From Phoronis australis (Eukaryota > Animalia > Phoronida), in the NCBI GenBank assembly GCA_002633005.1, contig NMRA01000693.1, positions 124,001-188,000 on the forward strand: a stretch of DNA of 64,000 bases, given 5' to 3'. Position 1 is the first letter of the stretch. Each line of letters opens with the position of its first letter. A program made the position numbers and the translations under genes. Shown one piece after another: positions 379-64,000 of this stretch. Below the pieces are notes generated by a model. The model did not search any database. It was not told where the DNA came from and saw nothing but the letters and a program-made list of their open reading frames with translations.

Positions 379-966
379 AACAAGTGCAACGCAGAGCGTT
401 GAAATGCGCCCACGAATGCATCGCAAACAGTGTGCTTTTAGGGTTGTATATTTGTATCATCAAAATGGCCACTAGATGGTGCAAAATACGTCGAATCTGT
501 CTGAAAACCTGCAAATGCCATAGTTTCTTTAAAAGAAAGCCATTTACATTTCATTAAAATTCTTCGAGGAACTTCAAAGAAACCGAGGAAAAAGAAAAAA
601 ACATGAAATTGCCACTAGGGGGCACAGTGTTCATCCGATCTGTCTAAAAGTCGTCGTCTTTTCTCGTTAACTTCACTAAATACACGAGCTAAATTTAATG
701 AAAATCCTGCAGAGGGCTTAGGAAATACAGATATGGGTGCAAAAAACCTAAACCGCCACTAGGAGGCACCACAATAGTCGAAGTCATCAGAAAATTATCG
801 TCAACCATCCCCTTCATAAAAAGAACATACCAAAACTTTCGCAATCATCCTTAGAGTGGTTGGTTGACAGAGGAACGGATGCCAAAAAACACTCGAAAAC
901 AACAAAAATGGCCACTAGGTGGCGCAAAGTACGTAGAATCCATCCGAAAACGGGAGGATAGCATCA
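379..966 (-). mobile_element. Partial copy of the same HINE/DINE-1-like family, interrupted by a MITE
   Basis: Starts aacaagtgcaacgcagagcgttgaaatgcgcccac, colinear with 13631 onward and 42226 onward. Confidence 0.75.
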
Positions 967-1458: not shown

Positions 1459-1699
1459 NNNNNNNNNNNNNNNNNNNNNNNNNNNNNNNNNNNNNNNNNN
1501 NNNNNNNNNNNNNNNNNNNNNNNNNNNNNNNNNNNNNNNNNNNNNNNNNNCTGCTATTATAATGCTGGAAAATTTCAACTGGTGTGTTAAGTAGGATGTA
1601 CCAATGACTTACGAATAACAGCAAACACTTTGAAATAGATAAATAAGGACATCGTGTCCATACATTACCCACTGTCAAAAAATATCCATGAAAAAGACA

Positions 1700-1845
1700 G
1701 TGGCTGCGACTGATAAAGCAGGAGAATTTCGATCCCAGCCATTGCTAAACAGCAAAAAATAAACATGTGAGCTAATCAAATAATTGGAGGAACTGACAGT
1801 GATATTTATTTCTCTGCTTTTAAATTTCTGTTCACCAAATCCGAG
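1700..1845 (+). repeat. Dispersed repeat, second copy at about 20749-20915
   Basis: Both contain ggctgcgactgataaagc.ggagaattt.gatcc.agcc ... aatttctgt.caccaaatc. Confidence 0.7.
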
Positions 1846-1989
1846 TTGGAATCAATAGCTCACTTGCGAGTTTCTCATTAGTCAATGTGACGTCACCGGA
1901 AGGGAAGGGGGCAAAAGCCGCCATATTGCTCTTGTTTTGCCCCGAGTCTTTGCTACACACGCTAAATCTTACTGGAGTTCTTATGGTGA

Positions 1990-2129
1990 TTTTTAAGCTT
2001 AAAACGTTTACACAACTTAAGAGATGGTACATGGATTGTGGAATAACAGTGAATGGACGAAGAAAATGTGAACTTGTGATGTTGTGCGAAAATGTGAACG
2101 GACTGAAATTGGAACTCAACCCGGTCTAG
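1990..2129 (+). pseudogene. SAP-like domain relic, probably from a DNA-transposon accessory ORF
   Basis: FKLKTFTQLKRWYMDCGITVNGRRKCELVMLCENVNGLKLELNP resembles T.xQLKxYLxxRGxxVxGxRKxELVxLC. Confidence 0.4.
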
Positions 2130-2189
2130 GCCTGAATGCTGCAGGCATACAGCTTTACAGGGGCTATAGTATATCCCCATAGTTATTCA

Positions 2190-2830
2190 CTTCAGAATAC
2201 AGCAAATAAAATCAAATGAAACATGCATATGTGCACATAGAGTTATAATTAACACATACCCTGACTCTGGATACAATTTAGCCAACAAATAACTTGAACA
2301 TGTCCATGAAAAACTCGCTGTTGGCTCGAGTTTCTCTCACCGGGCGCCACTTGGAGGAAGTTACGTGAAATCACGCCTGTTGACCAACAAAAAGTCCAAG
2401 GGATACAAACCTTATGAATTTCACTTGATATTTTCTCATGCTATTTTGCAAGTGTCACGCGCCATGTCACGTCACAGGTCTCGCGTTTTGCTCAGTCTCG
2501 CGCTAGCCTTTGCTTCCTACTCACCTGACTCGGTTGAAATACTTTGTGGTTATCGTACACGCGGTCAAAGTTAACAGTAACCACTAACTGGAGTTGAAAT
2601 TATTCACCAAAGTCACCTGAATTGCCATAGCTATCCTTCATCGAAGATATGTTTAGAAGCAGAAAGGATAACTGAAGAAAGTAAGCACCTTTTTAGGTGA
2701 TAATTTTAGGTGTAGAATGTATTTTTGACAAGGTGAAGTGAGCGGATTTCGCCTACCACCTGTATGAAATACACCAGACGAAATTAGTACAGAATGCGAT
2801 AAAATGTATTGTAGTGCGAATCTGAATTTC
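2190..2830 (+). repeat. Dispersed repeat with inverted and direct copies at 48370-49300
   Basis: gagttataattaacacatacc.tgactctggata matches the reverse complement of 49210-49250; gttgaaatactttgtggttatc matches the reverse complement of about 48918-48940. Confidence 0.8.
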
Positions 2831-5800
2831 GTTTGCCATAACAGCAATGCTTGTTTGGCATTTTTTTAACTAAATGGCTAAAAACTTGAAGAAAATGACA
2901 GAATACACTCTGCTACCGTATTGGGCAAATGGCCAAACGACAAGCTTTTGCCCCACTTCCCGTTACGTCACAGTTAAGTCTCACATAATCTCGCGTTATT
3001 GTTATAAACTCGCAAAAGGACTATTGGAAGCCACTTTTACACTCTAGAGTCCCCTATTGGGTTTTGGCTTGGATTTTCACCTGTACTAGGTCTATCATAT
3101 AGTGTGATTTGTATAGCAAAACATTTGCTAAAATTCTGAGCGTTTGCAACAATGTGGTAAGCCTCTGAAAATAGAAATATGTCAATTTTAGCAAATATTT
3201 TTCTCCCAAACTGAAGCATAATTTTTACCCTCATGTGACGATTACTCAAGCTTGATAAGTTAAGTGTTAATTGCAGAATTGCTTAATAAACAATAATTTT
3301 TAACATGGTGACCTGTTTCAAAGGTAGCAAAAGATAAGTAAGGTTGTTTATTCTGCGTCAATTTCACACCAAAATGCAAAGTATGGCAAAGCTTCCACAA
3401 CTGCGTTTGTTAGGATACTGTTTTGGAATACTGTGCATGCATTATTTTGCTTCACCACAGTGTGAAAACAACCTGGACTGTCAAAATTAGGACTTATCAC
3501 AGTGAGCGGATTCATTTCATACAAAAAACAATGATTGACGTAAATGGTAAACCTGAGTTTAGCAAAACACCCAGTTCATATGGTGAGAGAAACTAATAAT
3601 CATTTGGTGCATCAAACATGCATTGTCTGCTATGTCATTCTCTTCTTCATGGGAAAGTAAACGACAAATTACAGATAAACTGGTGATTCCATTGTGATCT
3701 TTGCTGTCATTACTGTAGCTTTTCAATAGCAAATATTAATCACATTGGCTTTGGGCCAAATTAGTAATAGGAAACCCAGCACAACTGTTGTCAACAGAGC
3801 TTTAACCTTTGCATACGACTGCTTTTATTACTTTGCGCATGCAAGCGCAGAGTTTTTTACAAGTTGATCTTGTTACTCGTGACCATCATCGTAACGTTGG
3901 ATATGTACGTAACTTATGTAGATATAAAATGTTGACAACAATTAGGCTGGATTTTCTAGCATGTATTCAGTAGATGAAGACCAGCTTGGAATTCTGCAGA
4001 CGCTCGAAGAAAACCCGAGTGTGATGGCGTGCTTCAATGCATGACGATATCTCGCAGACTTATATCTTGCTTTTAAGTGTGTCTCACGTCTGAGGAATTC
4101 AGTCCTGGTCTACGATCCACGTAACTTATGCATTACGCAAAGATAAGTCTTCACAGCAGCACCACATCAAAAACAATAACAGAAATGTCTCTGTCATTAG
4201 TGAATTAGAATTACTACCACGAACTATTAAAGACCCCATATCTCAAAGGGTTAATCTAGTACAAACACTTGGAAATATACCAAACAAAGAAATAAAAAGA
4301 TGTGACATCATGGTAATGTTTTCCTGCTTGCTGTAATGAAACTACATACTTTTTTAACACACTATTGTACCTCAGTTGAAGTCAGAAAACCGGTGACTAT
4401 TGCCATCACTTTCAGTGACTTGAGTTCCTTGTACATCTCAGTTAAAGAAAGATTCCCGAATTCAGGCTATGTTGCCATTGAAAACATACTGATACCAACT
4501 AAGAGTAAAATCCGTATTTTGTTTGGTTGTTTTCGACGCACATAATGATTTGTCTATTGACAAATTATACCTGATTCTTACCATGTGTTGTGTATCATTT
4601 AACAAAATTATGAGTTGAAAGTCATGCATACATTGCACCTCTTGCAGCCAGCACTAAATTTCAGTAATGAAACCCGTTCTGGTAAGGGGAAAATTTTTCT
4701 TGATTGTCAAGCGTCTCATTGCCATTCCGTGAAACTGATGCTAAGTATCCGACAATTGCCGTGGCAACCAACAACACACGGATAACTTGGCAGCAAATCG
4801 GTACCAGTCTTGTTGACCGACAGAATAGTAAAGCAGTAGAAAAATCAACCACAAATGACTGATTCACTGTGAAAAATCACCGCTTGCTGAATTTATATTA
4901 ATTTTAATTATTAAAGAAAACATGTTTTAAAATGTGATAAGAATTTGCAATCAATATCTCCACTGTCGGAAATTAAAAGTTCTGCAATTTATCGATAAAA
5001 AGTGCAAACTGCATTGACCAAAAGGTGCCACTGAACAGGGAGGAGTGTAGTGTACTGTAATTTATGAACTGAATGTTGGCGATTAGAAATTATTCCAGAT
5101 GCTATTCAAGGCCTTTGAAGTGTTCATACTGTGTGAAGCAGTTCTTTGCGGCTTGGCGGCCAGACTGTGGGAGTAGCCTACAGATGCCAAATTGTGTATC
5201 TGGTAAAATAAAAATTCTTCCTCAAACTTTAAACTCTGATACTTTGGTCATAGATCAAACATGCTTTCGCAAGTTATTTTGTTTTTATTAGCATGGGCCA
5301 GTACGCAATCCTAAAGCACATAAATATACTGCCTGATTGATTAGTAGTCCCTATTTACAAATGTGATAACAGAAATGTCAATATACTCAATTACCAATTA
5401 AATATGATAAAAAATGACACAAGTTAACACTACATATTAAGAAAGTCTCCATGGATTGCCAAAAGAACAAAGTGGGTGTTTTGTGCAATGGGTTTGACCT
5501 CTATGTGACCTGCGCACCTGCGATGCTATTCAAGCATAGGACCACATGCGATTTTCTTTTGTTTTTTTAACCATGTCCAGAATGGTGGAAAAAGACAGTA
5601 TTTTTGTGCAATGCAAACTTAGCAACTTCGAAAGCATATTCAATATAGCTAGTAGTCGTACTTGGTTCTAATATGTTGACAGCTTCACAAAGAAGTCATC
5701 TCACACCAAAGGTGATTGATCTGCCTTAATTAAGAGCTATTCATAGAGAACAAAAGGAAGAGATGGAACAACATAATAAGTTTCATTATTATTCTTTTCA

Positions 5801-5938
5801 ATTGCAAGTCTGTAGGCTTGCAAGGAATGATGAACAACCAGGATGATTTCCAGTCAAAAGTATACTAACCACTTGTTGTACAGCTGCATCAATGCATTTT
5901 TTCAAATAAATGTATCCGAAACTGAACAAGATCACTGA

Positions 5939-6386
5939 GTGGTGCAATGAAATGTAGACACATGTATCTTCCTTAACTGCACTACAGTTATACACTTCTG
6001 TTTTGAGAGCCTCATAACATATTGACCTTTGAAGTCATACGCTGTGAATTATCTGTCTAACATGCAACTCTACCCAAATAATCAAGACAGCCAAATTTAA
6101 AAAAAAAAGATTTACAGATATTGATTTTTGCAATATGGTGACAATGTACACATCCTGAATAGAACAAACCTTTTAATGTTTGTTTAGTTTCCTTTTTCGC
6201 CATCCTTTGAACAAGAAAAAATAACATGCAAACATTGTTCTAAAATGCAAGAAAAATGACTTTTTATATGAATTACAATTCCCCCTTCAGCCCTGTGCAA
6301 CTCAATCATTCTCACGAATTTGGACCCCCACTTTTCAAATCCTAGATGAGTCCCTGTTTCTACCTTCAGAAAATATACTTTTACTG
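5939..6386 (+). repeat. ~445-bp direct repeat, copy 1
   Basis: Near-identical to 8177-8625. Confidence 0.9.
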
Positions 6387-6644
6387 ATTCTAATATCAAA
6401 GAACTTACAACGAATTTGCAAAAGAATGGCTATCCCCTAGAATTAGTCAATAGGGTACTGAAAGCAAGACTCCAACGTAACCCTGATGATGTTCATCATG
6501 TAGACAAAACTAACTACAAGTACTTTAAAATACCCTATGTTGGGTTTTACGCCAAAATTGCTCAACGAAAACTCAACAAATTGGTGAATGATTACTGTGT
6601 GAACTTAAGAGTTGTATTAACATTCAAGTCTCTAAAACTGTCGA
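6387..6644 (+). mobile_element. Penelope-like retroelement fragment (region between RT and GIY-YIG)
   Basis: LQKNGYPLELVNRV...YFKIPYVG...KLNKLV...VVLTFKSLKL matches the NGYP and LPYxG pattern of PLE ORFs. Confidence 0.7.
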
Positions 6645-6645
6645 N

Positions 6646-6790
6646 AAAAGTCCTCAGTCCATAATTGCAATAGAACGATATTATGAAATACATTGCATTC
6701 TCCACTGTGAAAAGTCCTCAGTCCATAATTGCAAAAGAACGATATTATGAAATACATTGCATTCTCCACTGTGAAAAGTCCTCAGTCCAT
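6646..6790. repeat. ~65-bp tandem repeat following a single N
   Basis: aaaagtcctcagtccataattgca...ctccactgtg about 2.2 times. Confidence 0.8.
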
Positions 6791-8176
6791 AGGAACAGGA
6801 TGCTCGATTTTGTTTTAAGGTTTTTTAAGACCTGATTGACAAGCGTGTGACTTAGACAAATGCCCAGTACAAAACTATTGAGTTTATGCAAAAGTGTACA
6901 TTTTCTGAGAGCAACACGCGGGTAAAGGTTAATAACAAATTGTATATAAATTTGTGTGGTCACGTAACCCATGGTAAAAATTAGCAAAAGATAAAGTACA
7001 AGTCATCCAAACAACAGTAACAAGAACGTGGTCAAATTTTGTTTCAAATAAATGTACAAGATGAAATCTCAGAAATGCTGACAAAGTTTTTTAAAATATC
7101 ATTTTGCTTCTATTTGATGCATCTTTTGCTTTCTTCACTGAAATCATAATAGTCCTATTATTTAAAGCTCTCAAGCAAACACGGGTCATTTTAAAAACAA
7201 TATTCCTAACAGTGTTTTAGAGAACAATGCAGAAATAACAGAATGTGAATGTTTCGTTTCATAAGAATCCAATTAACCATTTCTGAGAAATGAACCCAAG
7301 CCAAATGTCGTATGGAGGTCACAAGGTATTGTATAATTTGCGAGATCCATGGGACGAGCATAAGCACAGCCCGCGGTTATCGCCTATGGTACACTTTCAT
7401 TGTTTTCCTTAGTTTTTTGTTCGCACTGTTCCGTTGAAACTCCAGCGAATATATGAAAAAATTATAATTCGCCCAGGTCTAACGATGTATATTGACATGC
7501 GAGAATGCAGTGCACGTGAAAAAAATGAACTGTTTCGTCTAATGTTCGTTACGTATTCAATAACTTAACATGAAAGTAAAAGCCTCGAAATATTTCAACT
7601 TTTTACAGAATTCCAAGATTATTGGGCAATTTGTGTTTGCTCTGCGCGTGGCACTGTTTGCCATATACGGAAAGAGTAAGTCACCCAATCACGTGCACAG
7701 AACCTGTTCGGCTGTGAACAAGACCAGAATTTGACTCTTAAAACTGCAAGGAAATAATGGTTCTTTTTAAGAATAAATTTGCTGTAGCGTAGTATGAAAG
7801 ACTGTGATTGACTTTGGTCTTGGTAAGTGTCAATTTCCACAAAGCGTCCATTTATAATCCACTGCAGCAGACGCTAACAACCACACACAACTCAGCGACA
7901 ACTGGCAACGCCCATAGCCAGACTCCAAATTTGCGAGTAAGGAGCTTGGAAAACGATTGGAAAATGTAAAATTATGAGCAGCATACTTAAACACGGAGTT
8001 CTGAAGTTTTTTTGATTGTCATCTTATACGAGGCCAATTCCGGATACACAAGCATGAGTGCAAATATGCCATCACTCCTACTTTCGAGTAGAGATTTTCA
8101 CCTGTGTTGAGCAACTGAGGGCCTGAATTTCTTGAGGATATGTTTTCACTGTAGACTTATGAATTGCAGTACTGCG

Positions 8177-8625
8177 TGGTGCAATGAAATGTAGACACAG
8201 TCATGTATCTTCCTTAACTGCACTACAGTTATACACTTCTGTTTTGAGAGCCTCATAACATATTGACCTTTGAAGTCATACGCTGTGAATTATCTGTCTA
8301 ACATGCAACTCTACCCAAATAATCAAGACATACAAATTTTTAAAAAAGATTTACAGATATTGATTTTTGCAATATGGTGACAATGTACACATCCTGAATA
8401 GAACAAACCTTTTAATGTTTGTTTAGTTTCCTTTTTCGCCATCCTTTGAACAAGAAAAAATAACATGCAAACACTGTGTTAAAATGCAAGAAAAATGACT
8501 TTTTATATGAATTACAATTCCCCCTTCAGCGCTGTGCAACTCAATCGTTCTCACGAATTTGGACACCCACTTTTCAAATCCTAGATGAGTCTCTGTTTCT
8601 ACCTTCAGAAAATATACTTTTACTG
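8177..8625 (+). repeat. ~445-bp direct repeat, copy 2
   Basis: Near-identical to 5939-6386. Confidence 0.9.
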
Positions 8626-8674
8626 TCACAGTGTTAAAACGAAACACATATTAAATGTATATTTGGCTACATAT

Positions 8675-10123
8675 AGACCCAATTCACGCCGACAGGAGGC
8701 GCGTTCCAAAACGAGGCTCGCTATGATAGCTCTGTTAGCTTATCGGCATAGTTGTATTTCCGCCCACGTTGCTCCGTGAACGGCTAGAAAAAATACGGAC
8801 ACTCAACTGTCTGCTTTACAATACCTAAAGACGTTAAGATTCGGAAGCGTTGGGTCGTTGCCATACGCCCCGACCAAGCAAAATATGTCCCTGTAAAATT
8901 TATAAATGTTTTCGAAAAGTTAGATCATATTTTGTCGCATCTCGGTTGCCAAGCATCATAGTAATGACCAGAGAATGGGCCAGCCAGTCTGTGTTTTCAT
9001 GACTACCGGTTGAAACATTATGTTTCTTTCCAAAAAGGACAGGGCCCTCAATCCCTCGAATTTGGGGCTAAATATTGGCCTTATTCCCCTCAAAAAATAT
9101 TGAAATATCACGCGAAATTCCCCCCAAAAGGCATTCCCCTACTGAAAAATCTCTCTGAGTTCACATCACCTGTAACCACACAGGTGACAATTTTTAAGAG
9201 CACAAAAGGCTACTTTAAATTGAGACAGAGCCTATGAGAGCTTGCAACAGGGCGGGGATGCTATTGATAATGATCGGGAGGTAGATTGTTCCCCTCACTC
9301 GGCGAAAAAAATCGCCTCTTAGTAGGCACTGGCACCTTTCCCCTCGGATGAACGAGGCTCCTGGAGAAACATGATAACTATGATTGCTTTGTCCAGTTAA
9401 CTGAAATTGAGTTCTAAAACGAGGTTATGCTTTGGACGAACGAATTAGGTGTTTTAATTTTAATATTCAACTTGGTCCAGATTGATATTTGAAACCTAAC
9501 ACATGAAATGGATGTAAGAATTATTACAACCAAGAAAGCAGATTTGATGGTCAAATAATTTTTATTTTCAATTATGAGCCTGGTTTTTTATTCTAATAAA
9601 AATATATTTAATAACATCAGTTATTCTTTCAGATCAATGACAAATCAACTGTTAGTCCCACTGAGTGCATAGGATCAGGCTATGCTTGATGTTAATATTC
9701 TTGATCAACAAATTAAACCAGATGTGACTAATTGCACATGACAGCCACCACTGTCGAATATGTCTTCAACTCGTCAACAATACGAGCAGATGACGTAGAA
9801 AGTATTTTGATAAACAATTTACAAGAACAAAAGGAAACCCTGCATTCAGCATAATACCTAATCCGTAACACTACGATCGCCGCAATTTGGTCATATTTAC
9901 TTTTCATGTTTCGAACCCAGTTTTCCAAAAAAAATTAAACCCTTTCATTAGACAACTCTTTGGGGCCTTAACTTGTTCTCTAATGTAATTTTCTACATCT
10001 CTGTGGTTAATTGTCGACACTAAAAATTTAATATCTATTTAACTCACGCAATGTCAACTTCCGCTTTGTTTATCGCAGTGAGCCTCGCTTTGGATTTTAA
10101 TGTCTGCCGCGTAAATTGGGTCT
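8675..10123 (+). mobile_element. Non-autonomous TIR DNA transposon with THAP-domain relic (ISL2EU/Harbinger-like)
   Basis: Imperfect ~50-bp TIRs agacccaatt...cgaggctc and gagcctcg...aattgggtct, flanked by AT on both sides. 8764-8874 reads PRCSVNG*KKYGHSTVCFTIPKDVKIRKRWVVAIRPD. Confidence 0.65.
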
Positions 10124-12629
10124 ATACCAACAAGTCAATAAGGTCCTATAACCTTAAGACTCCTTGTTACTGAAGCATGACAAATATGGTGGAGGCTCCA
10201 AGCCGACAAAATACCCTAAAAATCAGCAGCACGAGAAAGACCATTTCAAAATCTACATTTGAGAGCATTTCATGACTTCAGAAGTGATTGGGTGGGAATA
10301 TCGACTCCACAAAATCAGCAGCGGCACCTCATGGAATTCTGGACAACTTGTGTGATAAGCACTGGGCAAATTAACGGCAATAAGGCAACTGCAGGGAATG
10401 TTTAAGAAAAAGTACAAGACAGTTCACTATTTAGGAATAATACTTAGGTCTATTTACAAACAAAATTATCGTCAAGTCTGAGGATTAAGCAAAATAATTG
10501 CATACAAGTGCAAAACAAAGCATTGATATGTGCCAACAGTAAATGAATGTTTTTATTCGTGCTGATCAGCTTCAAAGTAAAACAAGACACCATCATGACC
10601 ACAAGGGGTAGCTGCAATAGTCCAAAATGACAAATTGTGTTAGTATTAAACTAATACCAAATCAAAAAGTTTTAAAAATGAATAGTTAACAACATTTGTA
10701 ACAAAGAAATAAAATATTACGCAAAGGGACACAGCACCGGGCATTTGGACTGGTCTAACCTACTTAATATTTTCATAAAGAACAATCATGAGATTTGGCA
10801 GACACAAAGACAGACAACAAGGACATAACAGGTACATCTCTTCTAGATAATCTGCTCAAACTGGCAGGTGCCATCATCTCCAAAATGTAACTGCCACTAG
10901 TGCATGCTTCAGTAGTCAAGACAGCCAGTAAATTGACTGGTAATGGCATGTTGGCATCACATACCCCAGTGTCCAGTATGTACATCGGTTCTCTACATAC
11001 AATACCGAAACAGTGTTCCCCCACAAATGCTGAAAAGCCCCTTGTAAAGACCAAAATGTCCACTTGAGGTGGTGCAAAAGAGAAATAGTTAAACTAAGTC
11101 TTGTGCTGGTGCATTGCCGTCACATATCTCTGGCATTGGAGACAGGGCAAACTGAAAAGGGGCATGCACCGCTCTAGCGAGGCCTTACACCCTGATGCCT
11201 AATTTCATCAAAATACGACAAGGTTTTTTTGAGATGTAGAGCAGAGACAACTTCTCAACAGGACAAATGCACAAAATGATCACTTGTGGCTGCAGCAGTT
11301 GTCTGAAAATTGACTGGTGTCGACACATTGCCATAACATATCTTTGCAATAAGTTTTCTTGAAATCCTCTGTTCGTTCTCCAGATATCACCCAGAAATGC
11401 TTCCTCCACAAAAAGACCTGAACAGCCCTGACCTTCCGGCCCTGTGGGGCAGGTCAAAGGGAAAAAAGTGGCATGCACTGCCCTACTGATGCCCTTCCTC
11501 TTTTTTGCTAAGTTTAATCTCAATCCACCAGGGGGTTTTGAGATATGTAGTGAACACTCAAACAACCAGACACCCACACATGATGACTACGACATGCAAC
11601 CACATGTCAGGAGTAGGCTAACACTGAGTTTGGTTCTATTATGCGAGTGCACGTGTAAGTGCAGCACATAGAATACAGAATTTACGAGCGTACCTCACCA
11701 AATTTTCTGAACGTAGAAGCAAGCCTTCCAATATCTAGTCAACACCTCAGAAGCAACAACACTTCAGGTGTCGAGTCTCCTGCTCTCAAATGGAACAGTG
11801 TCCACAGGATTAGTGCCCCATGACCCTGTCTTTTTAGTAGAATATCACGCAGCACGATTTCTTGGTGTTACTTATAAACCCAGAACTCCTTTTTGAATGT
11901 GTTATTTATACTACTGTATAACAATTTTTGACTGACTTGATCCAGTCTACAACAGAGAATCACAGGTAATTACTGCATATACCTTTGAATTGGCCAGCAA
12001 CACTTAAATAATTATAGTAAGCAAATAGAATTTACCAACTACGCTACTATGATATGAACAACTATTGGTTCTGTTTTAGTTTTAGGCAAAATAATGATTT
12101 TTTAAAACATCCCAAAAATTGCAGTTTTTATAGCATCTGATGGAAACCTGGAACAGTTTAACAATTCATAAAATATGTTAATGTAGCCGTTTGAAGAATA
12201 GTCCAGCTTAAATTACAGTTTCAGAAAGTTTAATTGTAATCTGATCAGTCATTTTTGAGGTATGATATAGCCAGTTCTTGGCAATTTTTAAGGCTCCTAC
12301 TTAACTACTGAAAGGTGGCCATATTGTTATGACAGCGAGGTGGCCACATTCTTATGATAGACACGTGGCCATATTCTCATGATAGACATAGTCAAATAAC
12401 AGACAGGTGGACATACGGTAGTCTAAAGACTAAAAAGCATTTAATTTTACTTCAAGCGCTTTATTTTAATATGCTTGTTTATCCATATAACTTGGTGGAC
12501 ACTTGTTCAACTGTACCAAATGCTTCTATTGAGCCAGTGTTTGTTGAAATTACACCAAAGTTAGTCCTTGGACAAATCAACAATTTGAAAGCTTTACTTT
12601 TGGTCATTTGAATTGCTTTCAAAAGGTAA

Positions 12630-12825
12630 AATACCTTTTTCACGCAGTCGCCATTTGAGTAGTGAGCCTCTTCTTAGGTTTAAAAAACAATGCATTTGAG
12701 ACACGAATATCAGGAGGCATGCGGAAAATTACGCTTTGCGCTGTATTTAAGTGCAAAATGCATTGTTTTTAAAACCTAAGAAGAGTCTCACTACTAAAAT
12801 GGCGACTACGTGTATATGGTGTATT
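12630..12825. mobile_element. Foldback MITE with ~57-bp arms
   Basis: cacgcagtcgccatttgagtagtgagcctcttcttaggtttaaaaaacaatgcattt pairs with aaatgcattgtttttaaaacctaagaagagtctcactactaaaatggcgactacgtg. Confidence 0.75.
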
Positions 12826-13478
12826 GGGATTGAATTTAAACTGTACGCAAATTTCTTGAACAGATCACTCGTCAAGAATGTTTAAATGGCAGCGTCTTAT
12901 TGTATGCATGCTGTATTGAAGACAACTTTATAATGTGCTCTTTTCACTTTGCAGAAAAGTCCTTCAATTAAGGATCGTCAATTGCGTCAACATAATGCAC
13001 CACACAGCAATCAAATTTAGCGATGGCCAAAACCCAACAAACAACCAGCAAGCAGTTACAACATGATAGCAATTAAACTGTCGACCAGCTGCCTTTTCCA
13101 GAAAACAAGTTTCCAAGATAATTACAGAAACTAAGTGAACCTTGAAGTAATAAGCAGCCACTGAGGCTCAAAACACCAATAGCAGCTAGATACTTCCAGG
13201 CAGTAATGGGGAACTGCTGATTAAACATTCAGTTCCAAGTTTTGGTTTTTAGTGAAAGAGGGAATAGCTTTAGACAGAGTTTACATCTCATACTCTCAAA
13301 ATATGCCCATGGGGCAAATATTTGTCAGCGCTAACACATGGAAATTTCACATACAACTGAGTACACTTAAAATGGAAATCTAAAGTAAACAAAGACTTCA
13401 GATGACCTACTAACACACAAATCCCAATTCACTCAATGCGCCACCTATGGGAGAATCACTTAAGGCTGCAAAACCTAC

Positions 13479-13559: not shown

Positions 13560-16500
13560 CTGCAACAGACAGCAACAGCTGCTGCAACAGATAGTTTATG
13601 CACAATTCCAAACGATACACCAAAACGACGAACAAGAGCAACGTGGAGCGTTGAAATGCACCCACAAATGCATTGCAAATGGTGTGCTTTTAAGGTTATT
13701 TCTTTGTATCATAAAAATGGCCACTAGATGGCACAAAAACATACAATCCATCCAAAAACAGGAACATGCCATATTTCATAAAAATCTGTCAAGGAACTTC
13801 AGAGAAACAAAGGAAAACAGAATAAAATGAAATTGCCACTAGTGGGCACAGTGTCCGTTGGATCCGCCTGAAAGTCGTCATCATCTGTTGTTATCTTCAT
13901 ATAAATACACTAATTACTAAATTTAGTAAAGATCCTGCAGTGGGTTTAGGACATACAACTATGGGCGTAAAACAAACCTACCACTAGGAGGCACCACAGT
14001 AGTCAGTCACCATCATCAAAGGTCGTCTTCACACTGAGAACATATATGCCAATTTTCAAATGATTTGATTGATACAGGGGTGGACGCCAAAAACAAGATT
14101 TGAAACCAGCGAAAATGGCCACTAGGTGGTGCAAAATACCTCGATTCCATCCAAAGACATGAATACAGCGTCGTCACACCAATAAATGCCTATATTTAAA
14201 ATTTTATGAAAATCTATTGAGGACATTTGAGGATACCGAGTTAAACGTAAAAAACTAAAATTGCCACCAGGGGGCTCATCAGAAGTCAGATCTGTCCGAA
14301 AGTCGTCGTAATCCGTAGTTAACATCAAATAAATACATCTGCTAAATTAAGTAAATATCCTGCGAACGGTTTAGGAGATACAGCCATAGGCACAACAAAA
14401 ACACAACTGCCACTAGGAGGTGCCACAGTAGTCGAAATCGTTGGAAAATCATCGTAAACCGTCCTCTTTAGAGTAAGCACATACATGCCAATTTTCACAA
14501 TCATCCTTTGAGCAGTTTGGTTGATAGAGGGGTGGACGCAAAAATACAGACACGAAAACAGTAAAAATGGCCACAAGGTGGCGCAAACTACGTCGAATCC
14601 ATCCGAAAACGGGAGGATAGCGACATCTCACTAATAGGTGCCTACACATTAAATTTCATGAAAATCCGTTAAGGACTTTTGAAGATACAGAGGTAAACGT
14701 AAAAAAAAAATTGCCACTAGGGCGCACACCGGTAGTCGGATTTGTCCAAAAGTCGTCGTCGTTCGTTGCTAACATCATATAAAAATACTTACTGAATTTC
14801 GTAAATATCCTACGAACGGTATAGGAGATACACCATAGGTGCAAAAACACAAAACTGCCATTAGGAGGCGCCACAGTAGTCGAAATCGTTGGAAAATCAT
14901 CGTCAACCGTCCTCTTTAGAGTAAGCACATATTACATGCCAATTTTCACAATCATCCTTTGAGCAGTTTGGTTGATAGAGGGGTGGACGCAAAAATACAG
15001 ACACAAAAACAGTAAAAATGACCACTAGGTGGCGCAAACTACGTCGAATCCATCCGAAAACGGGAAGATAGCGACATCTCACTAATAGGTGCCTACACAT
15101 TAAATTTCATGAAAATCCGTTAAGGACTTTTGAAGATACAGAGGTAAACGTAAAAAAAAAATTGCCACTAGGGCGCACACCGGTAGTCGGATTTGTCCAA
15201 AAGTCGTCGTCGTTCGTTGCTAACATCATATAAAAATACTTACTGAATTTCATAAATATTCTACGAACGGTTTAGGAGATACACCATAGGTGCAAAAACA
15301 CAAAACAGCCACTAGGAGGCGCCACAGTAGTCAAAATCATCAGAAAATCATCGTCAACCGTCCTCTTAATAGTGAGCACATACATGCCAATTTTCCCAAT
15401 CATCCTTTGAGCGGTTTGGTTGATAGAGGGGTGGACGCAAAAAACAGACTCAAAAACAGTAAAAATGGCCACTAGGTGGTGCAAACTACGTCAAACCCAT
15501 CCGAAAACAGGGGGAAAGCGTCATCTCACTAATAAGTGCCTACATACCAAATTTCATGAAAATCCGTTCAGGACTTTTGAAGATACAAAGGTAAGCACAA
15601 AAAATTAAAATTGCCACTAGGGGGCACACCGGTAGTCGGATCCTTCCGAAAGTTCGCTCATGCTGTCCCATTCATGAATGGAACAAATGTGCCCAATTTC
15701 ATGAGAGTATGTCAATGGGTTTTGGAAATAGAGCAGCGGACGCCGGACGCCGCCCGGACGGACAGAGATGACGGCATAATGCGTCCACATATTAATATGT
15801 GGGCGCATAAAAACGGGTGACGATGCGATCCAATACACAGCGGCATAGTTCATAACGGGCACTCGATTTTATCACTAAAAGTGCATTCTAAAATAGTTCA
15901 TAGAAGTGCTATGATTAAACATGACTGTAATTGATTAAAAACACTCAATTCCTCAATGAACTTTTCAAAGGTACAAATCTACGCATTAGTTAATGCATTC
16001 AGCAGCTCTCAAGTGGCCATGAGTGCAGGAAGTGAAGTACTTTACATTCAGGTGTTAGTGCCCTGATGTAATAATAAACACTAGTGTTGGCTTACACAGT
16101 AAATTACAACAGATTAGTTAGTATACAAATGTTTTAACCCAATGACATAAGCTGTATCCCATCAAAAACGTTACAACTGGAGAATTTTTCCAATGATACC
16201 GTAGTCACAAATGTTTGGTACCAACTGCCATAAAATAGTTTAACCAACAGTTTACAACTTAGATCATCAAACGAAAGTTAAAAACAGACGTAGTCAATTA
16301 GTACCAAAATGCATCCTACTTGTGTTATCTGTTACTTGTGTTTCAACTCATCCAACCTCATTCTCCATACATTACCGCACCACTTCACCCCTACTTCTAA
16401 CTACAAATTACAATCCTAACCCTTATATACACACTGCACTACCTGGATCTCCAGTCATGTGATCTGTCACTTGTGTTTCAACTCATCCAACCACATTCTC

Positions 16501-19500
16501 TACATCTCACTGCACCAACCTCACCCTTACTTCAAACCACAACACTTCCCCTTCTATGCACAGCCTACTACCTGCTCTTGCAGCCGTGTGATCTGCCGCT
16601 TGTGTTTCAACTCATCCAGTCTCAATCCCTCCATCTTGCTGTGCCACTCCACTACTTTCTGAGCCCCCTTGCCGTCCTTCAGTGTGACCATCAGGTCCTG
16701 GAGGCTGGCATGTTGTAGTTCCAGTTGAGCCAAACGGTCCTCAACTTCCTGTCGTTCCACACTGACCTGTACAAGGATACACAGCACAACACAGTGTACA
16801 GTGAGGACCTTTTCGATTACACACAAGGTGGATTTTATCGCTCTTCCAATGATGACATGGTGTTATCCTGTCATTGTCCAGATGAAACATGTATATTGTA
16901 AGACCTTAGTCTCGTTTCCAAGTGCAAGGCTATACAGCCATAGAAGAGGTAATGCAACGAGATGGGGGGCATTGTCCCAATTTCCCTGCTCAGTTGGAAA
17001 CTTGTAAGTTGGATAGTGAGAGACCAAATAATATTTTCTTCTTGTAAAAGAATAACAAAACAAACGCAAGAGCAACACAAGGTGTTGAAATGGGCCCATA
17101 AACAGTGTGTTTGGTAACGCATAACTTGGCCATGGATATTAAGTCAGAAGTCGGATGATGCTAGCACATCCAAGCATACACCTATGCTGTAAATTATCAA
17201 AACATTTGTAAACTCCATTAGACAATAATGAATGGACACCAATACCTTCTCAAAGACTTATAATGGCCAATACAAGGTGCTATGGCAATCCAATCTGCCA
17301 GTGCATATCAGCCTTAACCACCTTCTTGTCAAGTTTCATCAAACTCGTGTGTAAAAGTAATTTTGACATAGGATTGTGTGACCACAATTTTTTGTAGTCA
17401 GTGCATAGAAGTTTAAAAGAGAACCATTTAGTGAAACTTGCAAACTAAACCAAACCACATGTATTTTCCTTTTCTCAAGACATACAAATTGTATTCTTAA
17501 ATGACTTTTAGTTCAGGAAAATTTCATGCAAACAGTGTTTTTACAATTTACTTCAGGATCACCAAAGCGGCTACATGACGAAAAACACCTTGTCTCTAGA
17601 TAACGATAAGGAGTTGGTGGACAGTGTTCACAAATTTTTTCTTATTTAATGCAGTGGGATATGACCCAGAATCTTTTAATAAATTCTTAGTCATCATTGT
17701 GTCAAGGAAATGATACAGTTAAGCAATGAGAAATTCTATTAATTAAAAGAAAAATGTCCAAATATCTAGAAATATGCATGAAAAAAAAAAAATTGTGTTT
17801 TGTTTATGGCAACTCCAAAATTAGAAATTAGGTCACGTGAAAGACATTGCTCAATGCTTAAGAGTATTATATAGAATGTGTCCTAATTTGGGGTACCACC
17901 AATCTCCCACTACACTTCCTCACCTACTTCTACTTCACCTCATTCACTTCCCACTATAATTGCGACCTACTTCCAATAACCTTATTCACCTAACACTACA
18001 CCCCCACCAAATTCTACTCCACCTCATTCCCTTCCCACTACACTCCACCTTCTACCATTTGACCCCACTCAAGTCCCACTACAACCTACCTCCCCCACCT
18101 ATTTCTATTTCACATCATTCACCTCCTACTACACCCCCACCTATTTCTACTTCATTCCGTTACCACTAAACTCCCTTACCTGCTTCAGATCCCTCTCGAT
18201 CGTCTGCTTGTCTTCCTGTAGCTGCATCATGGCCCGTGCAAACTTCTCCTGCTTCGACAGTGGTATGGCACCACTGTACTGCCGCCTCAACTCTTGAATA
18301 GTCCGCTTCAGTTGTTTTGCCTTGCTGTTAGCCTCGTTGCGGTTGTGAAACAGAGATTGGTCTTTCTCATCCAGACGCTGCTGCAGACGCAACGTCTGCG
18401 CATTCAACTTGGTGATCTTCTTGTTGGCCTCTTCCAGTCGACGAACTGCTGTACCCTCGCTGACTTGGAGCTGCACAATGTGTCGGTGCAGCTTACCTTT
18501 TGACAAGTGTAACACTTTGAAAAGGGAGTAATATACCAACACAGCTCAACAGAGTCTCCTGTGAGAGCTAAATGACTGAATATAAGCCTTTTTGGTTTTG
18601 AATTAGTTAAACGTTCCTAGTCATTCAGTTAATGTGAAGTTTTACACACATTAAATTACATAGGTTCGTTTTTTTAGCTTTTGCTTTGTTACTATTTTTA
18701 GACCAGAATTACAGCTCCTACAGCACAATGAACACACACCTATGATCTTCTTCTCATCACTTTGCGCCTGAAAGTCTACCAACTGTTGCCGCAGTGATGC
18801 CAACTCTTTCTCCCTTGACACCTGCTGAGCTTCCAGGGACTGGGCCTGCATCGTGCCCACCTCAGCAATTTCCTGTGAAAAACAAGAGACACGTGAACAA
18901 GATAAAATTTCTTGCACACATTTTTGGAAATGTATTAAGCCGCTATTGTCAATTTTTTGGCTTGTCTATACCAGCCCAAGACATAGCCAAGGCAAAAAGA
19001 CAGGGGTTAGCTAAACAATTTTGACAAGCATACACCTCTCGTGTATGCATCGACCTCTTGGTTAAATGACTAAGTGTACTTTCCGATCACATAAGCCCAC
19101 CAGTACACCATTTAGTAAAATAATAAGATCATAACTTATGTACCATAAATACTAAACTACTACTGGAATGCTCATCAATGTCAATTTTGATAACACAAAC
19201 ATTGAAGCTTTGTTTTATTCAATAAATTTCGGATTACATGTCAGTCATTAATTATACTACTCCAATCAAGATAAAATCGTGAAAATCTAAAATACTCAGG
19301 TAAATGCCATGTGATCTTCATCATTGTACTGGTTGTCGTCATCCTCCAGTCATGGGACCAGTGTAAGCCTCATATTGCACATACTCATCCGGGGTTCTCA
19401 TTCACACTGTCTGATTCGTGTTAACCAGTGACACACAATTTGGTTGTATTTATTTTTACGGAGTTGGTATTGTAAGAAGTGTCATGTTTAAAGATGTATA

Positions 19501-25500: not shown

Positions 25501-28500
25501 ACCTACATGAAAGGCAAAGCCTATGTGCGGAATTAAGTGTACGCAGCTATAAGGCAGCGAAAAGCAGAGTAATGGCACATAAGCCTAAATATAAACCTGT
25601 ATTCAGAAGATATTAACAAGGACAATGTTGAAATGTTCCCACGACTGCAATGCACATCGTACATTGCTAGGGAAGTTAATTATTTTCATGTAATACATTT
25701 AGACCAATCCAAGCACTATGATACCAAGCCGTAATTCAACTGGTGTCAGTGCATCTCAGGCATACAGCATTCGGCGGTAACAGAATGTAAAAAATAAAAT
25801 GACCATCCAAAATCAACCGATAAAGGCGCATCCCCACAAAATACATCAGTGTCAAATTTCTTCAAAATTTCTCAAGCGCCTTTGACAATGCTCAATGGGA
25901 ATGTCAAGCCATCTTGGCAATGATCGACAAAGAACAATTTGTCAAAAATAGAACGACCAACACGGGATGCTACAGAATTTGAATCAACCTGACAAACAAA
26001 GATGCATCTTTGCCATATACCTGTTATATATCATAAAGATCATTCTGCTAAGCCATAGATTATAGACAATAGATTTGCAACTCCAACATTTTCTTGCGTA
26101 GTATCCTAGAGGAGGTGCCACTCTCCTAAATTACCAATTTCAGTTTCTGGTTAATGTATTCTGACGGGAAATTCTCGCATCTATTTTACTGTCCAGAACA
26201 ATGAAAAAAAAATAATTTCGGCACTGAAACACTGCTCAAAGTCATTTAACAGTAGAACTGTTGGTATCATGAGTACTTATAACACCTGACCACAACAGTT
26301 GATCATGATTAGCAGACGACGCAATTGCTGGAAGTAAAACTTGCTAATTTTGTCAGTTGTCGCTAGTGAATATAAATGACTTCAGGGCTATTGCGTAAGA
26401 TCCCAGATTTTGTCCGTTGAAAAAATATGGAGTTGGCGGTCCATGTACTACAGTCTATGGTTAAGCCATCTTGACAGTAATAGGTGGAAAAAGTCTTTCA
26501 AAAACTAAAATGACCAACAGACGGTGCTAGAGTAGTCGAACAAGTTTTAAAATTAACTGGTGTTGTTGCATTCTCATTACAAGGCTCAGTGTCAAGTCTC
26601 GTCAACATTCGTTTTGCCGTTTCAAGTCCAATAATGGACAAACAAAATATTTTTAACTTGTTGAAAACTAAAACGACCAACAGGAGGTAGTTGAACCCAG
26701 ATGAAAACTGATGGATGGACAACGCTTTGGCAACAATATGCTACCACAAATTTTTATGGATGCATAAAAACACTGTAAAGAACTCCTTACCTTGCGCAGC
26801 GCGCCTTCCACCTCTTGCATTGCGTTGTAGCGGCGGGTCAGAGCCTTCTCATTCACCCTCAATATGGTCATCTTACGTGACATTTCTGAGAGGCGACGAC
26901 GCACCTCTACCTCTTCTTGGGCAAGGCTGTCTACAAGTCTCTGGGAAACACATAGGTACAGGTTTTCAGCTAACACTCAATGAAACATTAAGGTCAACAC
27001 GGGGTCTTAGTNAAGAATGTAAAAAAATAAAATGACCATCCAAAATCAACCGATAAAGGCGCATCCCCACAAAATACATCAGTGTCAAATTTCTTCAAAA
27101 TTTCTCAAGCGCCTTTGACAATGCTCAATGGGAATGTCAAGCCATCTTGGCAATGATCGACAAAGAACAATTTGTCAAAAATAGAACAACCAACACGGGA
27201 TGCTACAGAATTTGAATCAACCTGACAAACAAAGATGCATCTTTGCCATATACCTGTTATATATCATCAAGATCATTCTGCTAAGCCATAGATTATAGAC
27301 AATAGATTTGCAACTCCAACATTTTCTTGCGTAGTATCCTAGAGGAGGTGCCACTCTCCTAAATTACCAATTTCAGTTTCTGGTTAATGTATTCTGACGG
27401 GAAATTCTCACATCTATTTTACTGTCCAGAACAATGAAAAAAAATAATTTCGGCACTGAAACACTGCTCAAAGTCATTTAACAGTAGAACTGTTGGTATC
27501 ATGAGTACTTATAACACCTGACCACAACAGTTGATCATGATTAGCAGACAACGCACTTGCTGGAAGTAAAACTTGCTAATTTTGCCAGTTGTCGCTAGTG
27601 AATATAAATGACTTCAGGGCTATTGCGTAAGATCCCAGATTTTGTCCGTTGAAAAAATATGGAGTTGGCGGTCCATGTACTAGTCTATGGTTAAGCCATC
27701 TTGACAGTAATCGGTGGAAAAAGTCTTTCAAAAACTAAAATGACCAACAGACGGTGCTAGAGTAGTCGAACATGTTTTAAAATTAACTGGTGTTGTTGCA
27801 TTCTCATTACAAGGCTCAGTGTCAAGTCTCGTCAACATTCGTTTTGCCGTTTCAAGTCCAATAATTGACAAACAAAAAATTTTTAACTTGTTGAAAACTA
27901 AAACGACCAACAGGAGGTAGTTGAACCCAGATGAAAACTGATGGATGGACGCTTTGGCAACAATATGCTACCACAAATTTTTATGGATGCATAAAAACAC
28001 TGTAAAGAACTCCTTACCTTGCGCAGCGCGCCTTCCACCTCTTGCATTGCGTTGTAGCGGCGGGTCAGAGCCTTCTCATTCACCCTCAATATGGTCATCT
28101 TACGTGACATTTCTGAGAGGCGACGACGCACCTCTACCTCTTCTTGGGCAAGGCTGTCTACAAGTCTCTGGGAAACACACAGGTACAGGTTTTCAGCTAA
28201 CACTCAATGAAACATTAAGGTCAACACGGGGTCTTAGTGGACTTACAGGTATCTTTTAACAAAAAATCATGTCAAAAGTCACCTACGAATCAGAAATACT
28301 GATATATTAGGAATTTTTGCCTGTGTCCCTACTGTGTTCACAATCGTTTGATTGAGGACAAGCACCATTTTGTCTGCATACAGTTTGGACTCACATAACC
28401 ATCACATGACTGCAGGGGTAGTGTGTAGTTCATTCAGTCACCAAACAGTATAGATGTTGTAAGAAATTTGAAACATTTGAGTTTCCATCAACAAGTATGT

Positions 28501-40500: not shown

Positions 40501-43500
40501 TAAATACCCAACATGATGTCATGATTTATAGTCATATTCCCAGACATTGTCACTAAAACTCCAGAAAAAATTCTCACCAGTCTTTTTAGCCTGCATACCT
40601 TCACTTTTCTATCTAACTACCACCTTAATTCATCAGTTCTTCAGTTCAATTGAATTATTGGATCTTGGTGGTGGGGTTAAAAATAAGTCATTTCCTATTA
40701 AGCTGTGTCTTACTCTCACGACTCTCCATTGAACATGGTCAGCTCATGAGACTGGTTGCAGTCAAGTAGGAAGCCACTTATTGGAATATCCTGCTTATTA
40801 CCATAATTTATGTTCAAATCGCGGGTATGACATTAAGCGGGCTCGCCACTAATACAAAGCTACATGTCCATAAGAGCCAAGCCAGACTCACTTTGAGTTT
40901 CAAATATTCATCCGTTGTCTTCTCCATCTCTTTGACCGACTCTTTCAACTTCTTCTGAAGGTCATCGTTCCCTTCCTGGAGAGTCTTGTTGTCTTCAGTT
41001 AGGTTCTGCCAATGGAGACAGTGGTGACATTCAGAAAAACAAACTTGACAACTCGACAAAATTAAACTATGAAGGTCACGCATTGCAAAACCCAAAGATC
41101 CGGCAGAGTGTGATAAGTGTAGCTGTGTGTGATAAGTAAGGATGAGCTTCCATGGCTAGACTTCTTGCCATGCGTGACATGAGTTTTGTATAGCATGGTA
41201 TGTGTTTTACTCTCATGCTGAGGGGTTTGACTGACTGTTTGGTTACATTTGCTCACGTGGTAAGAGTTTTGCTCCCACGGTAAGAGATTTACTCCAGACC
41301 TGTAGTAAGGCTTTTGCTTCCATGGTAAGGGTTTTACTGCAGCTGTAGTAAGGGTTATGCTTCCATGGTAACGGTTTTTTCCCATGGCAAGAGTTTACTC
41401 CCATGAAAAAGATTTTGCTCATATGATAAGTTTTGTTTAATGTGATATGAGTTCTGCAGTCCAAGGTAACGGTTCAATTACCACACCTGCCATACAGTTC
41501 TGAAAATTCAGGATATTAGATTATTTCTTCTAACATCTTTCTCAGTCTCCCCAGATCTGTATTTCACACTATATTCTCTGTCCCATATCTCATCTGTATT
41601 ACACTATGTCCCTGCTCATTATCTCACCAGCCTATGTGTTATCTCACCTACATTTCCACCAAGGCATCTATCAATTCCCTTGTTTTGCGTGGTGATCTTG
41701 TCTCTGTAGTCTACATCATTATCGTGTCTCTGCATGTGCTCGTTATCTCACCTACCTACTCGTTTTCTCACCTGTATTTCCTCTAACGCGTTCACCAAAT
41801 CCCTGTTCTTCTTAGAGATCTTGTCCCTGTAGTCTACGTCATCTCCACGCCTCATCATCATATTTTCTTTCTGTGACTCCAGCTGGCGCTTGTAGTCAGC
41901 TATGTCGTCGTACAGTCGCTCGTTTAGTCGCTTCAAGTCCTGAAGCTCCTCCTCAGCCTTGTGCTGCTTTTGGGTCGCCTAGCAACATAAAAACTGGTAG
42001 GTAAGCAGTCACAGGTGTTGCAATTACGACAACATTCACCAAGCTTAAAATACTGAATGCAAAATTAATGAAAAATCACTTCAAAAGACTTGACAGAAAG
42101 AATAAACTCGACAGTTGTTAATTAAAAATGTGCGAGGATTCGTTTAAAATGCAGAATGATCCAGTGAACTACCGTTGCTAATTTTATCACCAGTAGCAAT
42201 TGGCATCAACTCAACATCAACCAACAACAAGAGCAACGCAGAGCGTTGAAATGCGCCCATGAATGCACCGCAAATGGTGTGCTTTTAGGGTTGTTTATTT
42301 GTATCATAAAAATGGCCACTAGATGGCGCAAAAACATCCAATCCATCCAAACGGGAACGTGCCATTGGTTCTTTGATAGAAAGCTATTTACCACATTTCC
42401 TAAAAATCTGTCAATGAACTTCGGAGAAACAACGGAAAACAGAACGAAATGAAATTGCCACTAGGGGGCACAGTGTTCGTTGGATCCAAATAAAAGTCGT
42501 CATCATCTGTTGTAAGCTTCATGAAAATACACTTACTAAATTTTATATAAATCCTACAATGGATTTAAGAGATACAGCTATGGGCGCAAAACAAAACAAA
42601 ACTACCACTAGGAGGCGCCACAGTAGTTGAAGTCGTCATCGTCAACCGTCCTCTTCACACTGAGAACATACGTTAATTTTCAGAGCCATCCATAGAATGG
42701 TTTGGTTGATTGAGGGGTGGACTCCAAAAAATTCGAAAACAGCAAAAATGGCCACTAGGTGGCACAAAATACATTGTGGATAGCATCACCTCACCAATAG
42801 ATGCTTATATTAAAAATTTTATAGTAATTTTCATAGTAAGTACATGCCAATTTTCATAATCATCCTCAGTGTGGTCTGTGTGCATATGTACTCTTGAGAG
42901 TGTAAAATAAGATTCAGTCAATATAACTTAGTTTTTCCTTTTACAATGGCACTTTCTTATGCCAAAAGAAGCCTCGGTGTTCGGTTTTTAGCACAGCATC
43001 CTTACTGAAGCACATTGTCACACATAAACACATTAATCTATGCCTGTCTGTAATCAAAGAAGAACATGGAAATACTTACCGAGTCTGTGTTGGCCATCTC
43101 AGTGTTGAGATCTCGCTCTAACTTCTTAATCTCTCGATGGCACATATCCAGGTTATTCTCTAAATCGCGTATCTCCTCCCTCAACACCCGAGTGTTAGCC
43201 GTCGAGCCTGTGGCCATGTCACCACCATATCTCTTCAGGGGAAACAACCAGACATATTAAACACAAGCGATAAATCAGGATGCAAACACTGCCACATTGT
43301 ACTAGGACTGTTCTCCCTCAGCCCACATGAATTTGAAATTGTGCTATGACTGGACATTAACAAGGCTGATAATTGGTTTGGTAAAAGTTTCGTCCATTCA
43401 GAATACAACACGGCGGAACTGAGAAATTTCATTTAGTCGAATTTCTCAGCAAAAATATATGGAAGAAAATTTTAATTCATTATCAGCACAGTGCATACTG

Positions 43501-63428: not shown

Positions 63429-64000
63429 GTAAATCTAGCCCTTAAGTACGCCTATCAGTCACTGCAGGCGTTATGTTGTGGAGCACTGACTAATCAAGGC
63501 ACGTAATTAGATGAATTTTCCAAAGAGTGTACTTATCTAATGCTAGATAACTCAGTGCAGAGTTCTATTAATTAAGGAGACGACAACGCCTTCCTATTTT
63601 CGGACAGATTTTGATATTTTAGGTGACCATTTAAAGATATTCTTTTTACATCTACATCTCTATCTGCCGAACCACAAAGGATCATTGTGAAAATTGACGG
63701 CTGTATTCCTGATGCGAAGATCCCGGCTGACGTTGATTTCCAGATGTTTTCCACTATTTTGGTGACAATTTTTTTTTTTGCTTTCACGGCTGTATCTTCT
63801 TAACCCTATGAAGGATCTTTGCGCAATTTAGCAACAGATGACGATACTTTTCGACCAATAGCTGTGCCTCCCAGTAATAATTGTTTTTACGGTTACCATT
63901 AAATCTTAGGAGTGCCTAGGCTTATTTTCATGAAATTTGGCAAGTAGTTATGTATTACAGAAACGGCGCCTCCTTCTCAGTTCGGACGGGGTTGGAGCAT

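Follow-up and report, generated by a model that had tools for sequence, protein, structure and literature searches.

Why should a mobile element carry, in every unit of its internal repeat, a motif that resembles the binding site of the architectural factor CTCF? The question is raised by the 64,000-nucleotide stretch of Phoronis australis contig NMRA01000693.1 analysed here (the window), in which a non-autonomous element with the layout of the Helentron-derived HINE/DINE-1 elements sits in an intron of a CEP290 gene and holds 14 co-oriented CTCF-type motifs. The original prediction saw in this array a mobile insulator or loop-anchor cassette. The reading that we favour, at a probability of about 0.55, is that the repeat of a HINE-type element holds in every unit a putative CTCF-binding motif, and that this motif would be kept because it is helpful to the element. 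The motif is likely to bind CTCF, it appears to be under constraint, and it probably persists because the element itself gains from it; a role as insulator or loop anchor is so far unsupported.

All 14 motifs lie on the plus strand. The CC of each starts at 13721, 13836, 13981, 14119, 14264, 14410, 14571, 14714, 14858, 15022, 15165, 15309, 15469 and 15614, in exact agreement with the positions listed in the original prediction, and successive motifs are 115, 145, 138, 145, 146, 161, 143, 144, 164, 143, 144, 160 and 145 bp apart (mean, 145.6 bp). Allowing no more than one mismatch, the pattern CCACTAGRDGGYRC fits 13 of the 14; it is matched 22 times in the window (13 times in the element, 8 in two other copies, and once elsewhere), compared to 0.14 expected from 100 shuffles. 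The proposed match to the CTCF core was borne out by a version of the JASPAR matrix MA0139.1 with column sums that run evenly from 913 to 908. Every one of the 14 sites scores at p ≤ 1e-4, and p falls below 1e-5 for 12 of them (17.1 to 24.3 bits), whereas 200 dinucleotide shuffles of the element gave a mean of 0.7 sites and a maximum of 3. The window holds 22 sites that score ≥17 bits with the same matrix, and the family to which the element belongs accounts for 20 of them; lone strong sites at 10599 and 31689 lie outside the family copies.

The array is built from three monomer types, A, B and C, that are as diverged as had been claimed, with 72 to 79% identity within a type and 50 to 53% between types. 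It consists of 4 2/3 copies of an A-B-C trimer, i.e., trimers of 398, 452, 451 and 447 bp plus an A monomer and part of a B monomer, and the program TRF reports a 451-bp trimer repeated 3.5 times at 14064-15641. The trimers are 76 to 96% alike, the final two full ones being 96% identical. The motifs are thus not independent but are copies of three sites within one trimer, and their number, orientation and spacing result from head-to-tail tandem amplification of that trimer. Two B-type sites carry a G>C change in a column of high information; they score 11.3 bits.

No other part of the monomers, which are otherwise about 50% alike, is kept as well as the motif, and where the motif does vary, the CTCF matrix is tolerant. 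At three loci taken together, 50 of 56 positions in the motif do not change, compared to 285 of 477 elsewhere, so the contention that conservation is higher in the motif than in the remainder of the monomer stands; when only G/C positions are counted, the figures are 33 of 35 and 92 of 167. Identity between types is highest at the motif and its 5' A-tract (0.79 to 0.81, with a median of 0.45). Among 19 distinct 19-mers, higher matrix information goes with lower variability (Spearman -0.70, p 0.0008). The cost of the 20 variants seen averages 2.0 bits, compared to 3.7 bits for random changes (p 0.001, 19 columns). The family majority at 15480 is GGCGC, which is closer to the CTCF matrix than the element's own sequence.

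The history that we envisage begins with an ancestral monomer of ~150 bp that would already have carried a CTCF-type site, and that would have been triplicated before its copies diverged into A, B and C. Amplification of the A-B-C trimer within copies would alone have given the number, orientation and spacing of the motifs. Repeats that recruit CTCF may keep their lineages open or unmethylated and so be copied more often, in which case the target of selection would be the active lineages of the element rather than the individual insertions. As a by-product, CTCF sites would be scattered in large numbers, with nucleosome-poor patches probable, rather than phased nucleosome arrays.

Several observations weigh against this account. 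The benefit to the element is something that we purely infer. The variant-cost test becomes marginal when limited to the 14-bp core (p 0.045), and the absence of any variant at an invariant motif column holds for the 40 variants listed of 141. Depth in the sequencing runs described below, a weak proxy for genome-wide conservation, ranks the motif bins 6, 3 and 1 of 12 in run X1, 8, 6 and 1 in X2, and 6, 2 and 5 in X5. An A-tract just 5' of the motif (-7 to -4) and a GTCG block (+21 to +24) are also kept across types, which is unexplained by binding of the CTCF core, and inspection by eye shows no upstream (M2) motif of the vertebrate type. Finally, the p-values overstate independence because the sites descend from one another.

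The alternative that survives best is that the motif is a passenger, having arisen once in the founding monomer and then been copied along with it, in tandem and by rolling-circle amplification. What would then keep it is gene conversion between monomers or a role at the DNA level, as a small hairpin or as a nicking or recombination site, rather than protein binding. We consider this unlikely, though it deserves to be taken seriously. It suits an array in which all sites are copies of three, a conserved block that reaches into the upstream A-tract, the weakness of the genome-wide depth evidence, and the near-palindromic form of the type A motif (GCCAC-TAG-GTGGC). The hairpin, however, was rejected as the main cause of conservation: it is not preserved, with an A:T pair in 9 of 22 sites and no compensatory change, and the AG of the loop is invariant. 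A degraded relative of the element at 63643-63994 also fits a passenger in keeping its scaffold without the motif (identity, 265 of 426 in the scaffold versus 16 of 42 in the motif, with deletions of ~8 to 10 bases through two cores, at one locus and by few events); this relative may represent decay, a loss favoured near the start of a gene, or a motif-less sister family. Variation that follows the CTCF matrix speaks against a passenger, as does the rarity of such sites, one of ≥20 bits being expected with the matrix used here in about 3e-5 of random 150-bp monomers. So too do the HINE arrays of oyster, in which heptamers of the CTCF core are sporadic (CCACTAG 54, CTAGTGG 11, AGGTGGC 3 and AGATGGC 15 in 3.35 million characters; PMC7492417). 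The oyster elements are mobile without the motif, which is therefore not a general HINE transposition signal.

It appears improbable to us that the host retains the element as a mobile insulator or loop-anchor cassette whose oriented arrays, at nucleosome spacing, would shape chromatin domains. The orientation and spacing on which the original prediction built this design both follow from head-to-tail amplification and are generic to HINE arrays. A period of 143 to 146 bp is less than a 147-bp nucleosome core plus bound CTCF, so that a nucleosome could not fit between two occupied sites, and full occupancy would therefore leave a nucleosome-poor patch. Nor is a near-nucleosome spacing special, given that the monomers of the oyster Cg_HINE elements, without the motif, are mostly 140 to 180 bp long (PMC7492417). 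A host-serving cassette would be in keeping with the family's share of the strong sites in the window, with the single orientation, relative to host transcription, of the three copies in identified genes, and with the binding of CTCF to transposon-borne sites in lamprey and zebrafish (PMC5504073, PMC7182764). Oriented loop anchors, however, find no parallel in echinoderms, the boundaries and loop anchors of which lack a CTCF orientation pattern (PMC13317027), or in an annelid, in which most CTCF sites occur singly, close to promoters and without a preferred direction (PMC7854359). In addition, the insertion near a gene start at 63643-63994 has every motif broken, and since it has lost the motif faster than the scaffold, conservation of every copy by the host looks unlikely.

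It is very doubtful that the binder is another zinc-finger protein of similar specificity, or that a larger block of A-tract, motif and GTCG is read by a different host or element protein: the sites do favour T at column 8 and A at column 18, against C and T in the vertebrate matrix used, and the flanking blocks are kept across types, but six of the nine high-information columns are invariant in 19 distinct sites, the other three vary by matrix-tolerated or rare changes, and we know of no other factor with this site pattern.

The element is high-copy and non-coding and has the end structures of Helentron-derived HINE/DINE-1 elements (Table 1), so the termini recognized in the original prediction hold, with the end shifted from 15812 to 15813. 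The features of that group found here are subterminal inverted repeats (subTIRs) at both ends, a 5' inverted repeat, a 3' stem-loop, a microsatellite, central tandem repeats, an interspersed distribution, defined boundaries and a lack of coding. It is likely that the element was moved in trans by a rolling-circle Helentron partner. The 5' hairpin has a DNA folding energy of -10.1 kcal/mol (z, -3.7), and none of 200 shuffles was equally stable; the 3' stem-loop is predicted in all three copies, with whole-segment z values of -1.85, -2.93 and -0.64, so that its energy on its own is modest. The microsatellite is variable in unit number, other copies having additional CGGA units at 15743 and 15754. 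The element ends in TTTTT and ...GTT; at this locus, with no empty site compared, no clean duplication adjoins both ends and AAAACG occurs near both. Stop-to-stop frames across the element, taken without a domain search, are no longer than 138 amino acids. An RNA gene or a tRNA-derived short interspersed element was ruled out, as no Rfam match and no ARAGORN tRNA match was found in the element. The AA/TT helical periodicity at 10 to 10.75 bp is 73, compared to ≤56 in 28 other segments, a value inflated by the tandem copies and exceeded by the element's own 8-bp peak (90).

Table 1. Coordinates of the element and its parts, the host intron, and related copies in the window.
Feature	Position	Strand	Remarks
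Whole non-autonomous Helentron-type element, HINE/DINE-1 layout	13631..15813	-	2,183 bp; conventional 5' end at 15813
5' terminal T run, TTTTT	15809..15813	-	Read from sequence
5' subTIR, ATGCGCCCAC	15799..15808	-	10 bp
5' hairpin, subTIR plus adjoining inverted repeat	15779..15808	-	12 pairs, 1 mismatch
Eroded (GTCC)n-type microsatellite	15737..15767	-	Read from sequence
5' core, non-repeated	15645..15736	-	~70% like one monomer block (blastn against array)
Central array, types A/B/C	13700..15644	.	14 monomers, ~450-bp trimer
CTCF-type motifs	13718..15629	+	14 motifs; CC positions in the text
3' subTIR, GTGGGTGCAT	13656..13665	-	9/10 compared to 5' subTIR; 10/10 in copy at 379
3' stem-loop, CAACG-CTCCA-CGTTG	13639..13653	-	6-bp stem in the other two copies
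3' terminus, CTTGTT	13631..13636	-	Common to three copies
Host CEP290 intron	13560..16571	-	3,012 bp, GT/AG; element fills 72% and stops 71 bp before acceptor
Second family copy	379..966	-	3' end and 4 motifs (469, 612, 756, 912); 5' part absent, cut by another insertion
Third family copy, in CEP290 intron	42226..42866	-	3' end and 4 motifs (42316, 42458, 42605, 42752); 5' part absent
Degraded relative, apparently in first intron of ankyrin-repeat gene	63643..63994	+	Opposite orientation; 3/3 motif positions broken

The insertion that interrupts the second copy spans 967-1458, has terminal inverted repeats starting CAGGCCTTCAT, and reaches an assembly gap. The ankyrin-repeat gene near the degraded relative is on the plus strand, with an open reading frame at 63125-63445.

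The extent of the family was gauged with sequencing reads. Four of eight runs, including X1, X2, X5 and X6, of which X1 and X2 are one sample and possibly the origin of the window's own sequence, were aligned to 15170-15950 (781 bp) at 80% likeness; none of the eight carries a ChIP or ATAC label. In the DNA run X1, 20,649 of 2,622,197 contigs fall on this segment. Summed depth is 1e5 to 2.4e6 within the element and 31 to 64 in bins from 15845 on, with a sharp drop at 15813, where 261 contigs exit into mutually disagreeing flanks (agreement, 0.36). The drop and the unrelated flanks show that the family is interspersed and has a precise 5' end, which confirms that the element is a dispersed one. 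Summed depth is not a copy number, but depth ratios point to 1-5 x 10^4 copies, with 2-4 x 10^4 per motif type; a firm lower bound is hundreds of copies.

The family is also seen in RNA. The reads on the same segment number 20,807 of 12,751,647 in X5 and 17,507 of 11,308,521 in X6, or ~0.15% of all reads. Of these, 730 (X5) and 633 (X6) continue past the 5' end into unrelated sequence, a pattern consistent with transcription running through from host genes. First mates on the plus strand outnumber those on the minus strand 37-fold in X5 and 30-fold in X6, the direction of the libraries being uncalibrated. With the usual stranded protocol, a plus-strand bias of first mates denotes minus-strand RNA. 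The motif AATAAA occurs three times on the plus strand and not at all on the minus strand of the element. In all three copies in identified genes, the element's minus (conventional) strand is the sense strand of the host gene. If the RNA is of the minus strand, the bias supports orientation-biased insertion or retention; capture of an A-rich strand is a possible cause of it.

The location inside a CEP290 intron proved correct, since the flanking exons, 16775-16569 (amino acids 1305-1373) and 13562-13479 (amino acids 1372-1399), are consecutive. The host is a spiralian. In a tree of 1,294 columns and 19 rows, drawn from 18 of ~130 proteins that included no brachiopod, phoronid, bryozoan or flatworm, the CEP290 of the window groups with nemertean, annelid and mollusc proteins (100/100) outside the mollusc clade, and the tree leaves its nearest neighbour unresolved (94/49); identity is 57.6% to the nemertean and 57.5% to the annelid protein. 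CTCF has been reported in spiralians, namely an annelid and an oyster, and is absent in flatworms (PMC7854359, PMC7021899). Matches to CEP290 end at about amino acid 1399 (13479), and the other 13 kb (1-13400) yielded no more exons, leaving ~1,090 amino acids missing; beyond 13479 the gene may be split, misassembled or interrupted by a long intron. A stretch of ~1.23 kb with one CEP290 exon (26773-26940 and 28000-28167) is doubled within 26500-28260, with a single N at 27012, and is possibly an assembly artefact.

Elsewhere in the window, another dispersed repeat family is present at 2183-2794 and 48689-49306, in opposite orientations and 76% alike over 644 bp. A single open frame of 269 amino acids with no Pfam match lies at 59772-60581, and a fragment of a zf-RVT domain adjoining a TG microsatellite, likely from a decayed long interspersed nuclear element (LINE), lies at 54157-54423.

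The role of CTCF outside vertebrates is an open matter, and work on echinoderms calls for data from more bilaterian lineages (PMC13317027). Dispersed arrays that are intact, truncated or broken in their motifs constitute a natural test set for CTCF binding, insulation and the effect of orientation in a spiralian, and the family is well suited to the question of whether a transposon maintains a host-factor site in the interest of its own survival. Should CTCF not bind, the element would be an ordinary HINE, and counts of CTCF motifs in such genomes would be swamped by a single repeat family. A wider proposal, which we think unlikely to hold as a whole, is that the family would be the main supplier of CTCF sites in the genome, with ~10^4 copies and up to ~10^5 strong motifs, selection at the level of the element, and near-uniform orientation in genes. 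Its arrays, facing the host promoter, would be polymorphic chromatin barriers or a sink for CTCF, and HINE monomers would have a slot for host factors that is filled differently by each family.

Among known systems, the HINE/DINE-1 elements have, in order, a 5' T run, a subTIR, a nested inverted repeat, a microsatellite, a core, central repeats, a 3' subTIR and a stem-loop, and the present element shares this order of parts, the TT ends and the lack of coding capacity (PMC4067079). Its 10-bp subTIR is shorter than the 12 to 15 bp of mite HINEs and the 13 bp of DINE-1, with 11 to 15 bp described overall (PMC4067079, PMC7492417), and the 3' subTIR lies 25 to 35 bp from the end, compared to 38 to 60 bp in mite HINEs (PMC4067079). 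The available portion of that account makes no link to CTCF.

The oyster Cg_HINE elements are alike in having a spiralian host, a GTCC-type microsatellite, a combination of subTIR, inverted repeat and palindrome, dispersed short arrays, and conserved boxes common to diverged monomers; by eye, the A/T-rich scaffold is similar as well (PMC7492417). CTCF is unmentioned in the portion of their description at hand (PMC7492417). Oyster monomers have other G/C-rich blocks, GGGTGGGGCC in CL1, CL2 and CL4 and ACAGGAAGTTGACGTC in CL3 (PMC7492417, supplement 2). A higher-order unit of three monomers with a CTCF-type site in each distinguishes the present element from them. The two oyster blocks resemble KLF/Sp and ETS/CRE sites, hinting that HINE monomers have a slot for sites of host factors.

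A scan for paired motifs gave no loci in viral contigs and eight in metagenome contigs (L001 to L008), none of which resembles the family beyond the motif. L002 and L008 are apparent repeats in coding sequence, and L003 and L004 are unexplained. The other four look like animal repeats, their strong motifs being spaced at 146 (L001), 38 (L005), 158 (L006) and 155 bp (L007). L005 (2290-2967) is a 38-bp minisatellite of ~18 copies, mostly with a strong CTCF-type motif. In L006, a 158-bp tandem repeat that holds strong CTCF-type motifs (773-1244 and 1-260) flanks a central segment and runs in both orientations, in a foldback-like arrangement. In L007 (2150-3110), a GGAC microsatellite and HINE-like ends adjoin a set of three strong motifs of the CTCF type, at distances of 155 and 346 bp, and the motif appears by eye to be inverted relative to the scaffold when compared with the family in the window.

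The ISX element of Drosophila miranda is reportedly of the Helitron type. It dispersed MSL sites (PMC4384637), and Helitrons of Caenorhabditis disperse heat-shock elements for HSF-1 (PMC6927752). In these cases, as here, a rolling-circle element spreads clusters of sites that match a single host factor. Binding and an influence on genes were demonstrated there; the factor here would be an architectural one, proposed from sequence. Transposons that propagate CTCF sites include lamprey hAT-Tip100 #274 and others (PMC5504073), non-autonomous DNA transposons of zebrafish such as TDR13B (PMC7182764), and mammalian retrotransposons, as cited in the two vertebrate papers (PMC5504073, PMC7182764). They share with the present family the multiplication of motifs by one transposon family, but they are cut-and-paste elements or retroelements supported by chromatin immunoprecipitation, and the parts of those reports available describe no tandem array of a dozen sites and no Helentron. 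In Caenorhabditis elegans, a species without CTCF, Helitron-minisatellite PATC barriers are intronic and are proposed to act through DNA bending (bioRxiv 10.64898/2026.08.08.743475). That proposal likewise treats intronic, Helitron-derived tandem repeats as chromatin barriers, and it mentions Helitron satellites of oyster, but its mechanism is one of DNA mechanics and explicitly not of a protein motif, unlike the CTCF motif here. In an annelid, CTCF is present and its motif ranks first in open chromatin (PMC7854359). Our literature searches, which were partial in coverage and did not take in the zebrafish table of enriched repeats, in which Helitron-type families could be named, returned no paper joining CTCF motifs to the central repeats of HINEs or Helentrons. 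Transposon-borne CTCF sites and Helitron-borne clusters of factor sites were thus known already, and what is new here is a HINE-type element with a CTCF-type motif in each monomer.

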